From NCBI GenBank assembly GCA_963783725.1, contig CAWAOJ010000002.1, positions 340,469 through 404,468 of the forward strand: a stretch of 64,000 nucleotides of DNA, read 5' to 3'. Position 1 is the stretch's first letter. Every line of letters starts with the position of its first letter. The position numbers and the translations under genes are program-made. Positions 17,769 to 26,673 of the stretch are shown here, piece by piece. The notes under the pieces were generated by a model, which was not told the DNA's origin, did not search any database, and saw only the letters and a program-made list of their open reading frames with translations. Source of the DNA: an uncultured Chloroflexia bacterium (GTDB lineage: Bacteria; Chloroflexota; Limnocylindria; QHBO01).

Positions 17769-18674
17769 TCAGCCCTTGACCGACCCTCCCACGATGCCGC
17801 GCACGAAGTAGCGCTGCAGGCTGAAGAAGACCACCAGCGGCAGTGCCATGCTGATGAAGGCCGCCGCTCCCAGGAACTGCCAGCCTCCGCCGAGCGAGTT
17901 CACCAGGTTCGCGATGGCGACGGTCAGCGGCAGGTTCTGCGAGTTCGAGGCGCCGAGGTAGATCAACGCCACCAGCAGGTCGTTCCAGACGAACAGGAAC
18001 TGGAAGATGGCGAGGGCCGCGATGGCGGGAACGCTCATCGGCAGCGCAAGCCGGAAGAACGCCGTCACCGGGCTGGCCCCGTCGATCGCCGCGGACTCGA
18101 ACACCTCGCGCGGCAGCGAGCCCATGAAGTTGCGCAGCAGGTAGATCGCGAACGGCAGTCCGTAACCGGTGTGCGCCAGCCAGACGGCCAGGAACTGGCC
18201 GTTGATCCCGAAGTCGGCGAACACCCGCAGAATCGGGATGAAGGTGGTCTGCAGCGGCACCACCAGCAGCCCGACGATGGCGACGAACAGGATGTTGCGA
18301 CCCGGGAAGTTCATCCAGCTGAAGGCATACGCCGCGAAAGCCGCCACGAAGATCGGGATGATGGTGGCCGGGATCGAGATGAACAGGCTGTTCACGAACG
18401 CGTCGCCGATGCCGCTCTGGCTGATGACGTGGACGTAGTTGTCGAACGACAGATCGTACGGCGGCAGAAGCCCGTTCCACCATCCGCTGCTCGCGACGGC
18501 CTGCGCCGGCCGGAACGAGTTGACGAAGAGGCCGATGGTCGGGACCAGCCAGACCACCATCAACACGATCAGCGCAAGGTGGACGCCCCAGCCGGTCCCC
18601 GACGGCTTGAGCCGGCTCGTCTTCGAGCCGCCCTCGAGCTTGCCCTCGATCGGAACGGGAGCGACGGCGGTCAT
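17769..18674 (-). CDS. Carbohydrate ABC transporter permease (MalG/UgpE-like)
   Basis: EAA-loop region AAIDGASPVTAFFRLALP; six TM helices. Start MTAVAPV at 18674 overlaps the upstream permease stop. Confidence 0.9.
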   Translation of the reverse strand: MTAVAPVPIEGKLEGGSKTSRLKPSGTGWGVHLALIVLMVVWLVPTIGLFVNSFRPAQAVASSGWWNGLLPPYDLSFDNYVHVISQSGIGDAFVNSLFISIPATIIPIFVAAFAAYAFSWMNFPGRNILFVAIVGLLVVPLQTTFIPILRVFADFGINGQFLAVWLAHTGYGLPFAIYLLRNFMGSLPREVFESAAIDGASPVTAFFRLALPMSVPAIAALAIFQFLFVWNDLLVALIYLGASNSQNLPLTVAIANLVNSLGGGWQFLGAAAFISMALPLVVFFSLQRYFVRGIVGGSVKG

Positions 18675-19666
18675 CGGACTGCCTCCTGTGCGCGGAAGCG
18701 GTTGACGTTGAAGGCCATCACCGGGATGACGGCGAGCAGCAGCACCACCGCGATCGCGCTGGCGCGCCCGAAGTCGAAGGTGCCGCTGAACATCTGCTTG
18801 TACATCAGGTTCGCGATCACCTCGGTGTCGAAGTTGCCGTTGGTGGTGGCGTAGACGATGTCGAACGCCTTCAGCGCCGTGATGACGATGGTGGTCGACA
18901 CCACCGCGATCGTGGGCAACAGGAGGGGGAAGATGATGCCGCGGAACACCTGCCACTCGGTGGCGCCGTCGACGCGCGCCGCCTCGAGCAGCTCGGTGTT
19001 GATGCCCTTCAGCGCCGCCGAGATGATGACCATGGCGAAGCCGGTCCACATCCAGGTCATGATGATGATCAGCGCGAAGGTGGTCAGGCTGAAGTCAGAG
19101 GTCTGCATCCACGGCACGGGCCCGAGTCCGACCCCGCCGATGACGCCGTTGATGGTGCCGATCTGCGGCTGCCCCGGTGGCTGGTAGTCATACATGAACT
19201 TCCAGATCACCGCCGCGGCCACCATGCTGATGGCGAGCGGCACGAAGATCACCGATTTGGCAGCGGACTCGTACTTCACCTTGTCGACCAGGATGGCGAT
19301 GAGCATGCCGAGCCCGACGGTGAGCAGGGTCAGGAAGACGAGCCACAGCACGTTGTTCTTCAGCGCGGAGAGCGATCGGTCGTCCTGGAAGAACCACGCG
19401 TAGTTGGCGAACCCGACGAACTTGGTGTTCGTCCCCAGGATGGTGCCCTTGCTCTGGAAGCTGCGGATGATGGTGCCGATGGTCGGGTAGACGAGGAACA
19501 CGGCGAGGAAGGCAAGCGCCGGCGCGAGCCAGAGCCACGGTCTGATTCGCGGCTTGAGCCGCTCGGGGATGAGCCGCAGCACCTGCTCGGTCCCCCAGAT
19601 GTAGCCGACGAGCACGGCCGGGACGCCGACGACCACGATGATCGCGGTCGTGAGCCGGGGATCCAT
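18671..19666 (-). CDS. Carbohydrate ABC transporter permease (MalF/UgpA-like)
   Basis: EAA motif LEAARVDGATEWQVFRGIIFPLL. GGAGGAAG SD upstream. Confidence 0.9.
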   Translation of the reverse strand: MDPRLTTAIIVVVGVPAVLVGYIWGTEQVLRLIPERLKPRIRPWLWLAPALAFLAVFLVYPTIGTIIRSFQSKGTILGTNTKFVGFANYAWFFQDDRSLSALKNNVLWLVFLTLLTVGLGMLIAILVDKVKYESAAKSVIFVPLAISMVAAAVIWKFMYDYQPPGQPQIGTINGVIGGVGLGPVPWMQTSDFSLTTFALIIIMTWMWTGFAMVIISAALKGINTELLEAARVDGATEWQVFRGIIFPLLLPTIAVVSTTIVITALKAFDIVYATTNGNFDTEVIANLMYKQMFSGTFDFGRASAIAVVLLLAVIPVMAFNVNRFRAQEAVR

Positions 19667-19751
19667 CGCGCTTCCTCCGTCCTCCGGATGGACAGAGGAG
19701 GGCCGCCGTGGTGGCGGCCCTCCTCAGACTGCGAGTTACATGCGCGAGCGG

Positions 19752-21068
19752 CTACTGGGCCGCGTACGCATCGGTCTGGGACTTGTCGAGGCTCGCCAGC
19801 AGCGAATCGAGCTGATCCGGATGCTGGGTGTAGGTGACCGTCGCCTTCCAGAAGGCGTCGTTCATGGCGGTCGGCATCAGGTCGGAGGCGTCGAAGACGA
19901 ATGTCTTCGCGCTCGTCAGCAGCTCAGCGGAGCGCTTGCTGATGTCGTCGGGATAGTTCGTCACCTTCTTGTTGGCCGATAGCGCGCCGCCGATGCCAAC
20001 CCAGATGCTCTGCGCCTCCGGCGTGACGAGGTACTTGATCAGGGCCTTGGCCTGCGGCGTGTCGTGGAACATGCCGAACAGGTCGCCGGCGCCTTCGACG
20101 GCACCGGAGTACTGCGAGTTGATGTCCGGGAAGGGGAAGAAGTCGTAGTCCGTGCCGGCCTTCTTGTCCTTGAACGCGCCGAGGCCGGTGATGAAGCTGG
20201 CCTGGTGCAGGAGCTGGCAGCCCGGAGGGCTCTTGAACAGCGGGTCGCCCGCGTTCGCGAAGTTGGTGCTCACGACGGTGTTCGCGCCGCCGTAGGACTT
20301 GGCGACGACCTCACCGTAGGTCTGGAACGCCTGCTTGATCTCGGGAGAGGTCCACTTGAGCTTCCCGTTGTACCAGTCGGCGTACTTCTCGGGTCCGGCC
20401 TGGCGCAGGACGAGGTCCTCGATCCAGTCGGTGGCCGGCCAGCCGGATGCGGCGCCCGACTCGATGCCGAGGCACCACTGCGCGGCGGCCTTGGAGGCAT
20501 TTGCCTGCAGCGCGGCCTTGAGGTCATCCCACGTCTTCGGCGGCGTGCTGAAGTCGGTGACCTTCGGGTTGTACCACATCAGGCCCTTGATGGCGGACTT
20601 GATGAAAACGCCCACGACCTGGTTGTTGACCGTGCCCAGCTGAACCAGCGCCGGAGCGGTCTGGTCCTTGTAGCTCGCGATGTCCAGCACGTCGTCGAGC
20701 GGCTTCAGCGCGCCCGCCTGGGCGAACTGCTGCATCTGGCCCGGGCCCGGAAGGCCGGCGAGGTCGGGGAGGACGCCGGAGGCGACTCCCGTGGTGAGAA
20801 CCGTGTTCAGGTCGCGGGTACCGGTGTACTTGACCTTGACGCCGGTCTGGTCCTCGAACGGCTTGACCATCTGCAGGAAGGCCTTCTCCTCATCGCCACC
20901 CCAGGTGCCGATGACGGTGACCTCTCCGCCGATCTGCCCGCCGGCGGGCTGCGACGCTCCGCTGCCGCCGACGCTCGGGGCCGTGGTGCCGCCGGGGTTG
21001 TTCGAGCAGGCGCCGAGCACCAGCGCGAGCACCAGCGACGGTACCGCGAGACGTTGCCAACGTGTCAT
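19752..21068 (-). CDS. Carbohydrate ABC transporter substrate-binding lipoprotein
   Basis: Lipobox LVLGAC followed by a G/S/T-rich linker, then a family-1 SBP fold. GGAGGAAA SD lies before the ATG at 21068. Confidence 0.85.
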   Translation of the reverse strand: MTRWQRLAVPSLVLALVLGACSNNPGGTTAPSVGGSGASQPAGGQIGGEVTVIGTWGGDEEKAFLQMVKPFEDQTGVKVKYTGTRDLNTVLTTGVASGVLPDLAGLPGPGQMQQFAQAGALKPLDDVLDIASYKDQTAPALVQLGTVNNQVVGVFIKSAIKGLMWYNPKVTDFSTPPKTWDDLKAALQANASKAAAQWCLGIESGAASGWPATDWIEDLVLRQAGPEKYADWYNGKLKWTSPEIKQAFQTYGEVVAKSYGGANTVVSTNFANAGDPLFKSPPGCQLLHQASFITGLGAFKDKKAGTDYDFFPFPDINSQYSGAVEGAGDLFGMFHDTPQAKALIKYLVTPEAQSIWVGIGGALSANKKVTNYPDDISKRSAELLTSAKTFVFDASDLMPTAMNDAFWKATVTYTQHPDQLDSLLASLDKSQTDAYAAQ

Positions 21069-21129
21069 CCAGTTTCCTCCAATTGCCGCTTCGTATCTGA
21101 TGAACGTACGTGCGAAGGGCACGCACCGT

Positions 21130-22224
21130 TCAGCGAGTGACGAGACTCTTCTCGCTCTCGGGATCGAACATGTGGAGCTTGTCGACCGGAATCGCGAACT
21201 CGACCGATTCCCCGACGCTCACCTTGCGTGCCGACGGGACGAGCGCCACCACTTCGTGGCCCTCGGACTCGGCGTGGATCAGCTCCTCGTTGCCGAGGAA
21301 CTCGACGACGTCGACGCGTGCCGGGAAGCGGACCGCGTCCGAGCCCTGGCCGTTTGCCAGCTCGAGGTGCTCCGGTCGGAACCCGATCAGGAGGTTCGAG
21401 CCCTTGGGGCGGTCGGCCGCCGCGCGGGCCGCCGCGCCGCTGAGCATGAGCTTCGTCTCGCCCAGCATGAGGCTCTCGCCCTCGGTGTGAGTCGTCGCGA
21501 AGTTCATCGACGGAGAACCGATGAACCCGGCCACGAAGACGTTGGCCGGGTTCTCGTACAGCTCCTCTGGCGACCCCACCTGCTGCAGCAGGCCGTCCCG
21601 CATGACCGCGATGCGGTCGCCCATGGTCATGGCCTCGACCTGGTCGTGCGTCACGTAGATGGTGGTCGTGCCGAGGCGCTGGTGGAGGCGTGCGATGTTG
21701 GCGCGCGTCTCGACCCGAAGCTTGGCATCGAGGTTCGAGAGCGGCTCGTCCATCAGGAAGACCGATGGCTCGCGCACGATGGCGCGCCCGAGCGCGACGC
21801 GCTGGCGCTGGCCGCCGGAGAGCGCCTTCGGCTTGCGGTCGAGCAGCTTCTCGAGTCCCAGGATCCCGGCCGCCTCGTCGACCCGGCGCCGGATGTCCGC
21901 CTTGGGCGTCTTGCGCAGCTTGAGCCCGAAGGCGAGGTTGTCGAACACGCTCATGTGCGGGTAGAGCGCGTACGACTGGAAGACCATGGCGATGTCGCGG
22001 TCCTTGGGAGCCACGTCGTTGACGACCCGGTCGCCGATGCGGAGCGTGCCGTCGCTGATCTCCTCCAGGCCCGCGACGCAGCGCAGCGCCGTCGTCTTGC
22101 CACAGCCCGACGGGCCGACGAGGACGAGGAACTCGCCGTCCGCGATCTCGAGGTTCAGATCGTTCACCGCGATCACGTCGGCGCTGTAGCGCTTGGTGAG
22201 GTGGTCGAACGTCACGGTCGCCAT
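21130..22224 (-). CDS. Sugar ABC transporter ATP-binding protein (MalK/MsiK-like)
   Basis: GPSGCGKTT, LSGGQRQRVALGRA, FLMDEPLSNLD, plus a C-terminal TOBE/MalK regulatory domain. Confidence 0.9.
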   Translation of the reverse strand: MATVTFDHLTKRYSADVIAVNDLNLEIADGEFLVLVGPSGCGKTTALRCVAGLEEISDGTLRIGDRVVNDVAPKDRDIAMVFQSYALYPHMSVFDNLAFGLKLRKTPKADIRRRVDEAAGILGLEKLLDRKPKALSGGQRQRVALGRAIVREPSVFLMDEPLSNLDAKLRVETRANIARLHQRLGTTTIYVTHDQVEAMTMGDRIAVMRDGLLQQVGSPEELYENPANVFVAGFIGSPSMNFATTHTEGESLMLGETKLMLSGAAARAAADRPKGSNLLIGFRPEHLELANGQGSDAVRFPARVDVVEFLGNEELIHAESEGHEVVALVPSARKVSVGESVEFAIPVDKLHMFDPESEKSLVTR

Positions 22225-22338
22225 CGGTCTCCTCCTGGCCCTGCCTGGGGACCGGAACGCACCACTGCGTCCGGCGCGATCTCAATGGGAATGAAGCATC
22301 ATAGTACGCGACACAATGGCTTCTGCAACGAGATTTCC
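22225..22338. promoter_or_regulatory. Divergent intergenic region (relatively AT-rich) between the sugar ABC operon and the ParB-like operon
   Basis: This is the only locally AT-enriched stretch (…atgaagcatcatagtacgcgacacaatggcttctgcaacgagatttcc…) between divergent starts. Promoter function is inferred, not observed. Confidence 0.3.
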
Positions 22339-22893
22339 ATGCGTTTTCTCTCCAAACGGCTTCGCTCGCTGGGGGCGCCCAGCGTCCTCCCCTCGCTCTA
22401 CGACCTGTATCCGCACGCCGGCTCGGCCACGCGACGCAACCGAGGGCTGCAGATCGTGCCGGTCGACCGCATCATCGGCACCACGCGGCATCCGTCGCAG
22501 GTAACCGAGGACTTCCTGCCGCTCCCAGAGCTGCGCGGACAGAACTGGCGCGCCCGGTCGCAGCGCATCCGGCGCGCCATCGACACGCTGCAGATCCTGC
22601 CTCCGGTCGACCTGCTCAAGGTCGGCGACGACTACTTCGTCAGCGATGGCCACAACCGCGTCGCGGCCGCTCGGGCGGCCGGAATGGTGGGGATCGACGC
22701 CGACGTGACCGAGCTGGTGCTGCCGGGCGTGTCGGCCGATCCGGTGACGCCCTCGCTGCCGTCGGTGCTCAGCGACGCGCAGGCGCTGCGCCAGGCGGGG
22801 GAGGGACGTCGCTCGCGCACCGTCGTGCAGCGGCCCGAGAGTGACCAGCTGACGCGCGAGGGACTGCTCGACGCACGCGGCGAGGACGCATGA
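22339..22893 (+). CDS. ParB/sulfiredoxin-like N-terminal domain protein
   Basis: IVPVDRIIGT ... LKVGDDYFVSDGHNRVAAARAAGMVGIDADV resembles the ParB-N fold (ParB box with DGHNR in place of GERR). Alternative starts exist at 22285 and 22291. Confidence 0.55.
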   Translation: MRFLSKRLRSLGAPSVLPSLYDLYPHAGSATRRNRGLQIVPVDRIIGTTRHPSQVTEDFLPLPELRGQNWRARSQRIRRAIDTLQILPPVDLLKVGDDYFVSDGHNRVAAARAAGMVGIDADVTELVLPGVSADPVTPSLPSVLSDAQALRQAGEGRRSRTVVQRPESDQLTREGLLDARGEDA

Positions 22894-23579
22894 CGCTCCG
22901 GCTTCGCGTCGCCTGGCCGGATCGGCGGCTGTTCGAGGAGCGCGGCAACCGGCCGATCCGGATCCTGGCCGTGTCCGATGAGCCCGAGCAGGCGCTCGAG
23001 TCGCCCGCCACCCGCGACGGGCTGCGTCCGATCGACATGATCATCGGCTGCGGCGACCTGCGCGCCGATTACCTCGCCTTCGTCGCCGACGCGTTCCCCG
23101 AGGTGCCGCTGCTCTACGTTCGCGGGAACCACGACGCCGGGGAGGCGTGGCTCGACCGCGAGCGGACGAGCCTGCCGTCTCCGCTCAGCGACGGCCGGGT
23201 GCATCTCGAAGCCGGGCTGCGCATCGTGGGGTTCTCCGGATCGCCGGAATACAGCGAGCCCGACAGCCACGTCCAGGTCGGTGCGACGACCATGTGGTGG
23301 CGGTCGCTGGCCGCCTGGCTGCGGACGCTGGGCCGCAGGCCGCTGCTGGTCGTCACCCACGCGCCGCCGCGCGGCCTCAACGACGCGCGCGACGAGACCC
23401 ATCGCGGGTTCAGCGCCTTCGCCTGGCTGCTCGCTCGGCTTCGGCCTCCGCTCTGGCTTCACGGCCACACCGCGCTTGTGCGGCGCGGCCTCGACGCCAG
23501 ATGCCTCGTCCACGAGGGGACGCTGCTCTACAACTGCACCGGCGCGACGCTCGTCGAGCTCGTGCCGCCCGGCGGCTGA
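22890..23579 (+). CDS. Calcineurin-like metallophosphoesterase
   Basis: GDLRADY, VRGNHD, GFSGSPEY, VTHAPPRG and HGHTA, the canonical MPE metal-ligand motifs in the canonical order. Start overlaps the upstream stop (ATGA). Confidence 0.8.
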   Translation: MTLRLRVAWPDRRLFEERGNRPIRILAVSDEPEQALESPATRDGLRPIDMIIGCGDLRADYLAFVADAFPEVPLLYVRGNHDAGEAWLDRERTSLPSPLSDGRVHLEAGLRIVGFSGSPEYSEPDSHVQVGATTMWWRSLAAWLRTLGRRPLLVVTHAPPRGLNDARDETHRGFSAFAWLLARLRPPLWLHGHTALVRRGLDARCLVHEGTLLYNCTGATLVELVPPGG

Positions 23580-23582
23580 CGC

Positions 23583-24050
23583 GTGCTGCTCGCGCGCTAC
23601 GCTGCCGCCGCCGTCGCCGGATTCGCCGTGCTGCTGCTGGTCATGCTGCTCGTGCGCCCGATCATCTTCTCCATGGCGCCGGCGCGGACCGATGCCAACT
23701 ACGCCGTTGCCGCCGTCGCGGACGTCAGCGGGCGTCCGGCGGTCAGGGACGTGTTGCTGGCGGATCCTCACGGCCTGCGCGGCGAGCGCCCGCAGGGAAT
23801 CCACGCCGCCATTCGCGTCGTCGTCTCGTCTTTGCCGGGCGGTGCTGCGGCCGTGGTCAACGCCTACAGCACGGCCAACCCGTGCGAGGTCGAGGTGGTC
23901 GGGGATCGGCTGCGTGACTGCGCCGGGGCGGAGTGGACACTGCGCGGCGTGGCGTCGCGGTCGGGGCAGCCCGGGCTGCAGGTGTTTCCGACCGAGGTGC
24001 GCCAGGGCGCGGTGATCGCCGATTTCACCAGGCCGCTGCTCGCCCGCTGA
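23583..24050 (+). CDS. Hypothetical N-terminally anchored protein
   Basis: GTG start 4 nt after the MPE stop; one N-terminal TM helix (AVAGFAVLLLVMLLV). Confidence 0.5.
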   Translation: MLLARYAAAAVAGFAVLLLVMLLVRPIIFSMAPARTDANYAVAAVADVSGRPAVRDVLLADPHGLRGERPQGIHAAIRVVVSSLPGGAAAVVNAYSTANPCEVEVVGDRLRDCAGAEWTLRGVASRSGQPGLQVFPTEVRQGAVIADFTRPLLAR

Positions 24051-24107
24051 TTCCGGCACACGACGTGCGTCATCCAGGCGCACCACACCGAAGCGGAGGT
24101 ATGTGAC

Positions 24108-24377
24108 GTGCCCGTGGGACTCGATTGGCTGGGGTGGATCATCATCGGTCTGCTGGCCGGCGCCATCGCCGGCTGGTTCGTGCCCGGCCGCGAGCGGTAC
24201 GGCTGCCTCGGAACGACGTTGATCGGAATCGTCGGAGGCCTGCTCGGCGGCTGGCTGTGGACCGGGCCGCTCAACCAGGAACGCGCCGGCGGGTTCCTGG
24301 GGGCGTTGGTGCTCGCCATCGTCGGCTCGGTGATCGTCCTGTTCGTCATTCGTGCCGTCGCCGGGCGTCACGACTGA
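24108..24377 (+). CDS. GlsB/YeaQ/YmgE family stress-response membrane protein
   Basis: 89 aa; WIIIGLLAGAIAGW...TLIGIVGGLLGGWLW, the characteristic G-rich TM helices. Confidence 0.8.
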   Translation: MPVGLDWLGWIIIGLLAGAIAGWFVPGRERYGCLGTTLIGIVGGLLGGWLWTGPLNQERAGGFLGALVLAIVGSVIVLFVIRAVAGRHD

Positions 24378-24438
24378 GGCGCCGGCCATCGCGCCCGCGC
24401 CGCGACGCGCGCCGAAGAAATCGCACACAATCGGATAG

Positions 24439-26673
24439 GTGAGCCAGCCTTCGTCCGAGAAGCGTCCCGAGCCGGAGACGACGCAGCACGCCCCGTTGCC
24501 TGCCGACGACATCCTGCAGGTCGCCGACAGGTACTACATCCTCGCCACCTCGTCGCTGGCCGACGAGCAGGATCGCGTCCTGAAGCAGGACGAGACGTTT
24601 GCCGTCTTCGACCGATACGGCGACATCAAGCCCGTCGGCCTCGGTGAGGAGGGGATCTACCAGGCAGGAACCCGCTACCTGTCCGGGCTGATGCTGCGCA
24701 TCGCTCGCCAGCGCCCCATGCTGCTGAGCTCGACCATCCGCGAGGACAACGCGCTGCTCGCGGTCGACCTCACCAACCCCGATATTCGCGTCGACGACCG
24801 CGACGAGCTCGCGGTCCCGCGCGGGCTGCTTCATGTCGCGCGGACGGCGTTCCTGTGGGAAGGCGTGTGCCACGAGCGCATCGCGCTGCGCAACTACGCG
24901 CTGCACGAGATCAGCGTGCCGATCGAGCTCAGCTTCGAGGCGGACTTCGCCGATATCTTCGAGGTTCGGGGCGCGCGCCGCGAGCACCGCGGCACCACGC
25001 ATCCGCCGCAGCTGGTCGATGGGGGCGTCGACCTGCGCTACGACGGGCTCGACGGCCGCACCCGCTGCACGCGGATGCGCTTCGCGCCGGCACCGGACGA
25101 GCTCGATGGCACCCACGCGCGCTACCGCATCCACCTCGCCCCGCAGGCAGAGACCGCGATCGAGATCGGGATCGCGTGCGAGGAGCCCGCGCGACGCGCG
25201 CGGCCGGTGGCTCTCGACGAGTCGCCAGACCTCACCGCCGACGATCTCGCGCGCATCCGGGAGCGCGGTGCCGACATCCAGACGAGCAACGAGCAGTTCA
25301 ACGAGTGGCTGCGCCGCAGCGATGCAGACCTGGCGATGATGGCCACCCGCACGTCCCACGGCGAGTATCCGTACGCCGGGGTGCCGTGGTACAGCACGAT
25401 CTTCGGTCGCGACGGGATCATCACCGCGCTGGAATGCCTGTGGCTCGAGCCGGACGTCGCGCGCGACGTGCTGCGCGTCCTCGCCGCGTACCAGGGCGAC
25501 GTCATCGATCCCCAGCGCGACGAGGAGCCGGGGAAGATCGTGCACGAGATGCGCCAGGGCGAGATGGCCTCCCTCGGCGAGGTCCCGTTCGGCCGCTACT
25601 ACGGCACCGCCGACGCGACTCCGCTCTATCTCCTGCTCGCAGGCGCGTACTACCGGCGCACCGGCGACGTCGACTTCATGCGCCAGCTGTGGCCGAACGT
25701 CGAGCGCGCCATGGAGTGGGTCGAGACCTACGGCGATCCCGATGGCGACGGCTTCATCGAGTATCAGCGCCATCGCGGCAGCGGCCTCGCCAACCAGGGC
25801 TGGAAGGACTCCACCGACTCGGTCTTCCATGCCGACGGCGCGCTTGCCGAAGGCCCCATCGCGCTCAGCGAGATCCAGGGCTATGCCTTCGCCGCGCGTC
25901 GCGAGATCGCGGTCGTGGCGCGGGCACTCGGAAAGGACGACGTCGGAGACCGGCTCGAACGTGACGCGGAGCTCCTTCGCAACCGCTTCGAGGAGGCGTT
26001 CTGGCTGGAGGACCTCGGCACGTACGCCGAGGCGCTCGACGGCGACAAGCGGCCATGCCGGGTGCGGACCTCGAATCCCGGCCACTGCCTGTACACCGGC
26101 ATCGTGACGCCCGAGCGCGCGGCCCTCGTGGTCGGGCAGCTGCTCTCGCCGGAGGGATTCTCGGGATGGGGGATCCGAACCGTCGCCACCGGTGAATCGC
26201 GCTACAACCCCATGTCGTACCACGACGGCTCGGTGTGGCCGCACGACAACGCCATCATCGCCGCCGGGATGGCCCGATACGGGATGACTGAATCGGCCCT
26301 GCGCGTGCTGGAGAGCCTGTTCGACGCGAGCCTCTACATCGATCTGCGCCGGTTGCCCGAGCTGTTCTGCGGCTTCGCTCGCCGTCACGGCGAGGGGCCG
26401 ACGGCCTACCCGGTCGCCTGCTCGCCGCAGGCGTGGTCAGCCGGCGCGGTCTTCCTGCTTCTGCAGGCGTGCCTCGGCATGGAGATCGACGCGCCGCAGC
26501 GAACCGTCCGCTTCACCAACGCGCGCCTGCCGGACATGCTCGACGAGCTCTGGATCAGCGGCCTGCAGGTGGGCGACGCGTCGCTCGACATCGCGCTCCA
26601 GCGCCGCACCATCGATGTCGGCATCGATGTGCTGCGCAAGCAGGGCGAGGTCCGCGTCGTCGCGGTGAAGTAG
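24439..26673 (+). CDS. Glycogen debranching enzyme, amylo-alpha-1,6-glucosidase (GDE) type
   Basis: N-terminal GDE_N-like domain followed by a six-hairpin glycosidase region (GVPWYSTIFGRDGIIT, DSTDSVFHADG, GWGIRT). GTG start. Confidence 0.85.
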   Translation: MSQPSSEKRPEPETTQHAPLPADDILQVADRYYILATSSLADEQDRVLKQDETFAVFDRYGDIKPVGLGEEGIYQAGTRYLSGLMLRIARQRPMLLSSTIREDNALLAVDLTNPDIRVDDRDELAVPRGLLHVARTAFLWEGVCHERIALRNYALHEISVPIELSFEADFADIFEVRGARREHRGTTHPPQLVDGGVDLRYDGLDGRTRCTRMRFAPAPDELDGTHARYRIHLAPQAETAIEIGIACEEPARRARPVALDESPDLTADDLARIRERGADIQTSNEQFNEWLRRSDADLAMMATRTSHGEYPYAGVPWYSTIFGRDGIITALECLWLEPDVARDVLRVLAAYQGDVIDPQRDEEPGKIVHEMRQGEMASLGEVPFGRYYGTADATPLYLLLAGAYYRRTGDVDFMRQLWPNVERAMEWVETYGDPDGDGFIEYQRHRGSGLANQGWKDSTDSVFHADGALAEGPIALSEIQGYAFAARREIAVVARALGKDDVGDRLERDAELLRNRFEEAFWLEDLGTYAEALDGDKRPCRVRTSNPGHCLYTGIVTPERAALVVGQLLSPEGFSGWGIRTVATGESRYNPMSYHDGSVWPHDNAIIAAGMARYGMTESALRVLESLFDASLYIDLRRLPELFCGFARRHGEGPTAYPVACSPQAWSAGAVFLLLQACLGMEIDAPQRTVRFTNARLPDMLDELWISGLQVGDASLDIALQRRTIDVGIDVLRKQGEVRVVAVK

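Follow-up and report, generated by a model that had tools for sequence, protein, structure and literature searches.

A conserved gene pair of Limnocylindria and other high-GC bacteria encoding a predicted minimal ParB/sulfiredoxin-fold protein and a divergent metallophosphoesterase

We analyzed a stretch of 64 kb of DNA (the window) from an uncultured Chloroflexia bacterium (contig CAWAOJ010000002.1), in which three adjoining genes, called here P1, P2, and P3, are found on the same strand (Table 1). An earlier reading made from the sequence alone had described them as a coupled unit of a ParB-like protein, a calcineurin-like phosphoesterase, and a membrane protein. The open reading frame (ORF) coordinates agree with its gene positions, with the ATGA junction at which P1 and P2 overlap by 4 nt, and with the GTG start of P3, which is separated by 3 nt from the P2 stop codon. 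All three are genuine genes: a word-indexed search gave 416 homologues of P1, whose start codon choice fits the N-termini of the nearest of them, P2 has 1884 homologues, and orthologues of P3 are present in 66 related loci. The nearest identical or near-identical proteins are those of Candidatus Limnocylindria (Chloroflexota) metagenome-assembled genomes. As the window has a G+C content of 70%, long spurious ORFs are frequent; two very long ones, at 20680-22893 (+) and 22632-24512 (-), overlie the real genes in another frame or strand and are artefacts. P1 and P2 adjoin each other in >150 loci of Chloroflexota and of other high-GC DNA that is probably actinobacterial, and the conserved unit is the P1-P2 pair.

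The linkage was examined in two sets of loci. For the Limnocylindria set one genome per species was scanned and the best 80 of 186 stretches with P1 relatives were taken, nearly all of which are from Limnocylindria or unclassified Chloroflexota. The gene order in this set is a divergently transcribed MalK-type ATPase, P1, P2, P3, and a GlsB/YeaQ-like protein. P2 directly follows P1 in 79 of the 80 loci and the remaining locus stops at a contig edge. The 4-nt overlap (NTGA) is present in 74 of the 79, and the other five resemble frameshifted assemblies.

The second set consisted of 80 metagenome loci, with five further loci added through contig look-ups. These form a second clade with a median G+C content of 69% (86 loci, L085-L170), which from the look of its gene content is possibly actinobacterial (Actinomycetota); a look-up of clusters returned no taxonomy for it. 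P2 follows P1 in all 79 of the loci with room for it, 75 of which have the 4-nt overlap. The flanking genes are quite unlike those of Limnocylindria. Of 37 loci with room, 20 have an adenosine deaminase gene immediately upstream of P1 in the same orientation (in one case adenosine deaminase and P1 were called as a single ORF), and an ArsA/Get3-like ATPase is immediately downstream of P2 in 11 of 39. No MalK-type gene was found within 6 kb, where only generic ABC matches (28-34%) were seen. The conservation of the P1-P2 overlap is far beyond chance. The proposed three-gene unit therefore survives only in part: P1 and P2 are linked, whereas about 10 Limnocylindria loci and all of those of the second clade lack P3. 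The sequence-only reading had staked its case on P1 being ParB-like and on the genes being linked in relatives; both points were examined and both hold for P1-P2.

Three ORFs that appear to fuse P1 and P2, in some cases with P3 (P0351, P0358, and P0374), match P2 only in pieces; they look like frameshifted assemblies and were not used as fusion evidence. A P1 relative on a Rubrobacter plasmid has a metallophosphoesterase gene 2.7 kb away, within an arsenic island. This phosphoesterase is unrelated to P2 and its proximity was taken as coincidence.

P1 gave no match to Pfam, NCBIfam, or PADLOC, even at E<=1. When 39 P1 homologues were compared with Pfam, 14 gave weak matches to DUF1015 and one to ParBc_2. 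An AlphaFold2 model calculated from an alignment of 39 sequences was confident for residues ~11-130 (block predicted local distance difference test, pLDDT, 83-97), whereas the C-terminal third was poorly predicted and forms a disordered, low-confidence tail beyond residue ~130. A Foldseek search of the PDB with this model returned ParB-type N-domains (ParB, Noc, and KorB), sulfiredoxins (Srx), PadC, SbnI, and free serine kinase (SerK), with a probability >0.85 for almost all and a best E of 2e-4. The model thus upholds the ParB-like assignment of the earlier reading, for which Pfam gives no match. A broader P1 family profile gave seven weak matches to the PDB, all of them ParB or sulfiredoxin chains, and a narrow profile searched against PDB sequences found only flagellin, a chance match.

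In the profile alignment YFVSDGHNRVAAA of P1 falls on YRIIAGERRWRAS of ParB. The conserved motif of P1 is D103-G-H105-N-R107 (DGHNR), and alignment with Myxococcus ParB places H105 at the catalytic Glu (E93), N106 at the first Arg (R94), and R107 at the second Arg. When P1 was aligned by hhalign with human sulfiredoxin, His105 fell on the catalytic Cys. P1 contains no Cys and lacks a helix-turn-helix (HTH), for which no Pfam match was obtained, as well as the GERR motif, Box III, and the C-terminal dimerisation domain of ParB proteins. By its model P1 is a member of the ParB/Srx fold that fails the defining features of ParB, sulfiredoxin, and the two-domain kinases, and it is the lack of Cys, HTH, and Box III that sets it outside these groups.

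The tail of P1 carries a conserved motif, LRQAGxGRxSRT, which in the more general form [RKQ]xA[GA]xGR is found at residues ~148-161, about 43 residues past DGHNR. This general form was found in 174 of 230 DGHNR proteins versus none of nine tested relatives having DGHHR or DGHKR. Note that the tail motif loosely resembles the Arg-containing ParA-stimulating peptide of ParB. The distant DGHHR/DGHKR relatives (P0383, P0391, P0388, P0345, and P0340) showed no adjoining P2, several of the contigs being too short to exclude one, and P2 was beside the P1 relative in none of six such loci examined.

The P1 family is large: an exhaustive profile search gave 3125 cluster representatives at E<=1e-3 and 1392 at E<=1e-10. 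Many members have a long Ala/Gly/Val-rich N-terminal extension. By a simple test of hydropathy only 17 of 120 close homologues have a hydrophobic segment at the N-terminus, and hence membrane anchoring of P1 is not general. In some family members the P1 part is fused within one ORF to a GNAT, adenosine deaminase, universal stress protein, or MFS domain. Among the P1 relatives, P0383, P0389, P0362, and P0297 are fusions with universal stress protein, MFS transporter, and GNAT domains, and these fusions hint that the sub-family may be used generally in regulation or nucleotide sensing.

P2 is a calcineurin-like phosphoesterase, as had been read from the sequence, with a score against Pfam PF00149 of 32.1 bits versus a cut-off of 21.5 (E 1.9e-7); most P2 homologues also contain this domain. 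The residues D30-E31, G55-D56, G79-N80-H81-D82, H157, and H191-G192-H193-T194-A195 are invariant in 25 aligned homologues. Motifs II (GD) and III (GNHD) and the motif IV His are intact. The claim that P2 carries all of the canonical metal ligands failed, however, as motif I has no His and motif V has lost its second one, both deviations being invariant in the 25 homologues. Motif I is S-D30-E31-x rather than DxH and the position of the His is variable (P/L/T/A/E/R/V in the 25 homologues), whereas motif V is H191-G-H193-T-A195 rather than GHxH, with only the first His retained. The alignment register of motif V is fixed by the homologue from Tsukamurella (see below), which reads HGHVH at this position. 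Retention of D56, N80, H157, and H193 together with the catalytic His81 indicates that the second metal site is intact. In contrast, the first site appears from the alignment to be remodelled, neither the DxH His nor the final GHxH His being present anywhere in the family, and the invariant E31 and H191 may replace the missing ligands. P2 also has an extra conserved N-terminal segment, RLxVxWPD. Profile and single-sequence searches of the PDB with P2 gave no phosphoesterase and no solved relative detectable by sequence.

P3 is a lineage-specific accessory that is sometimes lost. Where it is missing from Limnocylindria loci with room for it, the GlsB/YeaQ-like gene begins about 100 nt past P2; in most of the 80 loci this gene comes just behind P3 or P2. 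Hydropathy analysis and an alignment of 67 orthologues gave an N-terminal hydrophobic helix (also seen in the AlphaFold2 model, in keeping with the membrane protein first proposed), then a conserved LLVRPxIFSxAPPRDD segment and a beta domain. No match was found in Pfam, NCBIfam, or PADLOC. The model (pLDDT 84.7) gave Foldseek matches to Rieske ferredoxins, Rieske iron-sulfur protein (ISP), and NirD-type proteins, with a probability of 1.00 for the ferredoxins and ISP and E values of 1.7e-4 to 1e-3 for BphA3, the Chlorobaculum Rieske ISP, and NirD-like proteins. The only conserved Cys residues of P3 are C101 and C113, which are followed by V and A/G, not His, and there is no conserved His. As the CxH/CxxH cluster ligands are missing, a 2Fe-2S center is unlikely and P3 looks like a degenerate QcrA/PetC-type Rieske protein.

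The positions of these genes and of their neighbors are given in Table 1. The MalK-type ATPase gene adjoins P1 in all 80 Limnocylindria loci and its product is 77-91% identical in nearly all of them; two of the ATPases are lower in identity and are likely frameshifted. The solute-binding protein of the same operon (window 17769-22224; loci L005-L084) is only about 30% identical in many of the loci. This divergence of the binding protein but not of the ATPase suggests that different transporters lie behind the conserved ATPase. In the closest relatives a GT4 glycosyltransferase gene precedes the glycoside hydrolase gene (L001:7752-11121, L003:7796-11108); it is missing from the window. The GCATCATAGTAC element was nearly invariant across 15 aligned malK/P1 intergenic regions, which are elsewhere poorly conserved, and probably serves the P1 operon as a promoter element of the -10 type. 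A simple scan for sigma-70 promoters and terminators gave nothing, and no RNA family, riboswitches included, was matched in a search of 21900-24600 against Rfam.

Table 1 Positions of P1, P2, P3, their neighbors in the window, and related loci
Feature	Position	Strand	Description
P1	22339..22893	+	ATG to TGA, 184 aa; predicted stand-alone ParB/sulfiredoxin-fold protein
P2	22890..23579	+	ATG to TGA, 229 aa; divergent metallophosphoesterase
P3	23583..24050	+	GTG to TGA, 155 aa; N-terminal membrane helix and predicted Rieske-fold beta domain
GCATCATAGTAC element	22296..22307	+	Conserved; ~31 nt upstream of P1 ATG
MalK/MsiK/UgpC-type sugar ABC-transporter ATPase	21130..22224	-	ABC_tran + OB_MalK + TOBE_2; divergent neighbor of P1; heads sugar ABC operon
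Solute-binding protein of sugar ABC operon	19752-21122		
Permease of sugar ABC operon	18671-19666		
Permease of sugar ABC operon	17769-18680		
Small membrane protein, Transglycosylase-associated (GlsB/YeaQ/YmgE) family	24108..24377	+	PF04226, E 8e-9
GDE_N_bis/MGH1-like glycoside hydrolase	24439-26673		Downstream of GlsB/YeaQ-like gene
Second-clade example loci	L091-L170, e.g. L121:3874-5490, L152:5628-6911; L089:6001-7908		Adenosine deaminase / ArsA/Get3-like neighbors
Tsukamurella locus L172	NZ_LR134459.1, 35591-41866		Alpha-amylase-family hydrolase and LacI regulator adjoining

A related pair is found in a cultured organism, Tsukamurella tyrosinosolvens (Mycobacteriales), where genes for sugar ABC permeases, UgpC, a metallophosphoesterase, and a protein called ParB in RefSeq form one operon. 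The order of the pair is reversed, the metallophosphoesterase gene coming before the ParB-like gene. The phosphoesterase is 37% identical to P2 (E 3e-31) and the ParB-like protein is 46% identical to P1 over 114 residues (E 2e-21), with the DGHHR variant of the motif and a C-terminal extension. RefSeq lists the latter as chromosome partitioning protein ParB, very probably in error. The UgpC directly preceding the pair is 57% identical to the MalK-type ATPase of the window. Outside of Limnocylindria this MalK/UgpC linkage was seen in one genome, and it keeps a sugar-related role open.

Our tentatively favored explanation of these data is that P1 and P2 are the subunits of an obligate two-subunit enzyme, in which a nucleoside triphosphate (NTP)-binding subunit would be joined to a phosphoesterase. 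Strict adjacency, the conserved overlap, and independence from the flanking genes all argue for two subunits of one complex. The proposed complex would be cytoplasmic, with its subunits made in matched amounts through the overlapping stop and start codons. P2 would be the catalytic metallophosphoesterase, acting with its second metal site intact and its first remodelled, and P1 would be a module that binds an NTP or a related nucleotide and acts on P2 by gating it or by delivering its substrate. Contact between the two would likely be made through the conserved Arg/Gly-rich tail of P1. From the linkage to adenosine deaminase the most likely substrate would be a nucleotide-type phosphoester, and the nucleotide-processing role raised in the sequence-only reading is plausible. 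The pair would be a vertically inherited housekeeping function of Limnocylindria and the second clade, to which P3 and the GlsB/YeaQ-like protein would be lineage-specific membrane add-ons.

Several points weigh against the two-subunit enzyme. Since P1 lacks the GERR arginines and Box III, NTP binding is argued from its fold alone, and the nearest minimal relatives of P1 (Srx, SerK, and SbnI) are phosphotransferases rather than switches. P2, having lost two classical ligands, could by its sequence be weakly active or perform other chemistry. The flanking genes differ by clade (MalK-type, adenosine deaminase, or ArsA-like) and thus do not indicate a single pathway. Finally, the apparent P1-P2 fusion ORFs resemble frameshifted assemblies.

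The phosphotransferase activities of Srx, SerK, and SbnI favor a different explanation, a kinase/phosphatase pair with a small-molecule substrate from the metabolism of sugars or compatible solutes. In this case P1 would be an ATP-dependent phosphotransferase like serine kinase, SbnI, and sulfiredoxin, and P2 would remove or cleave phosphate in the pathway of P1, the pair being tied to a MalK/MsiK-type importer. The location of H105 at the position of the Srx catalytic Cys is consistent with this role. So is the genomic context: a MalK-type gene immediately adjoins P1 in all of the 80 Limnocylindria loci and in Tsukamurella is in the operon of the pair, beside the alpha-amylase-family hydrolase and LacI regulator genes, and a GDE/MGH1-like hydrolase is encoded downstream in the window. 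However, the second clade has only generic ABC matches within 6 kb, and the Limnocylindria linkage may be synteny inherited within one class. Moreover, the C-terminal substrate domain that SerK and SbnI have is absent from P1, and the presence of both enzymes in one complex would risk a futile cycle. We consider the kinase/phosphatase explanation unlikely.

Metallophosphoesterases include the Mre11/SbcD nucleases and the Pnkp end-healing phosphatase, and P1-P2 might thus be a nucleic-acid processing complex in which an Mre11/SbcD- or Pnkp-like P2 acts on DNA or RNA ends with P1 as a ParB-like nuclease or NTP-gated partner. ParB N-domains are frequently annotated as nucleases and the strict 1:1 pairing of P1 with P2 recalls SbcCD. 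Against this, no DNA- or RNA-binding domain or HTH was detectable in either protein, P2 has no sequence similarity to any solved Mre11 or SbcD, and repair, ligase, and helicase genes were not found among the neighbors. A nucleic-acid substrate is therefore still less probable than the kinase/phosphatase pair.

The sequence-only reading had also raised a defence-like module, and an anti-phage or toxin-antitoxin-like system was considered. Several defence systems contain ParB-like domains (PMC12704722; PMC4619093) and P2 weakly matched a candidate PADLOC model, PDC-S10 (E 9e-5, 19.8 bits); P1 and P3 gave no PADLOC match. However, all of the Limnocylindria loci retrieved have the module at a single syntenic place in the chromosome, searches of viral contigs and phage genomes gave no copy of it, and integrase, restriction, and other defence genes were not found nearby, where the neighbors are transporters and glycoside hydrolases. 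The fixed synteny, the lack of phage or viral copies or of a convincing PADLOC match, and the nature of the neighbors make a defence function very improbable. The weakest explanation, that P1 is an orphan ParB serving chromosome or plasmid partition, draws on its fold and on the RefSeq name of the Tsukamurella relative and is already effectively refuted, as the earlier reading had anticipated, by the lack of an HTH or dimerisation domain, by DGHNR in place of the ParB GERR, by the failure to find a ParA-type gene among the annotated neighbors, and by the absence from the 64-kb window of a parS-like site within three mismatches.

If the two-subunit enzyme is correct, P1-P2 would add to the ParB-CTPase fold, which is under active study as a general NTP-binding switch, a large family (>1,000 protein clusters at E<=1e-10) whose partner, a metallophosphoesterase having a remodelled metal site, is of a new kind. 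The stronger proposal that the pair is a new class of nucleotide-gated phosphoesterase, the first to place a separate metallophosphoesterase subunit under the control of a minimal ParB/Srx-fold NTP switch, is more doubtful, and we put it forward only as a rather unlikely possibility. From the linkage to adenosine deaminase, such an enzyme could couple the turnover of purine nucleotides to the nucleotide status of the cell or, from the linkage in Limnocylindria and Tsukamurella, could couple MalK/MsiK-type sugar import to that status. Two widespread hypothetical proteins of the soil-abundant Limnocylindria would gain names. Because T. tyrosinosolvens is cultivable and has a related pair, the function of the pair is directly testable.

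Among known systems, sulfiredoxin is, like P1, a stand-alone fold of ~100 residues, and the two share the pattern LPPVDL...GDxYF..xGxxR in the hhalign comparison. Sulfiredoxin has a catalytic Cys-His (the GCHR motif) where P1 has His105-Asn106 and, having no cysteine, P1 is incapable of Srx chemistry. P1 also differs in having an obligate phosphoesterase partner and a long conserved tail. A DGHHR version of the motif, found in relatives of P1, is a point of likeness to SerK and SbnI, which are ParB/Srx-fold kinases of small molecules and have a C-terminal second domain of ~130 residues that is absent from P1.

PadC and the orphan ParB-like proteins (PMC12704722) have the same N-terminal fold as P1 and provide a precedent for stand-alone NTP-binding use of the fold coupled to the activity of a partner, as proposed for P1. 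P1 differs from them in lacking GERRxR and Box III and in that its partner is a separate metallophosphoesterase. According to that ParB-CTPase survey, members of the fold bind CTP, ATP, or GTP and sequence does not predict the specificity (PMC12704722). The Fig. 4 legend of the survey names PF02195 in the domain analysis, and PF02195 does not detect P1; the main text of the survey makes no mention of phosphoesterases.

P2 most resembles the Icc/CpdA-type metallophosphoesterases in keeping GD, GNHD, the motif IV His, and the first motif V His, and its motif IV T-H-A-P-P is similar to HHPP of Icc-type enzymes. It differs in that the entire P2 family lacks the His of motif I and the second His of motif V. 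P3, with a membrane helix followed by a Rieske-fold beta domain in its model, is comparable to the Rieske iron-sulfur proteins and the cluster-less NirD, the CxH ... CxxH ligands of the [2Fe-2S] proteins not being found in P3. P1 and P2 are both unnamed in Pfam and NCBIfam, and our literature search found no paper joining ParB-like proteins to a metallophosphoesterase partner or to MsiK. The P1-P2 pair thus appears to be undescribed, a stand-alone ParB/Srx-fold module with a new and dedicated enzymatic partner.

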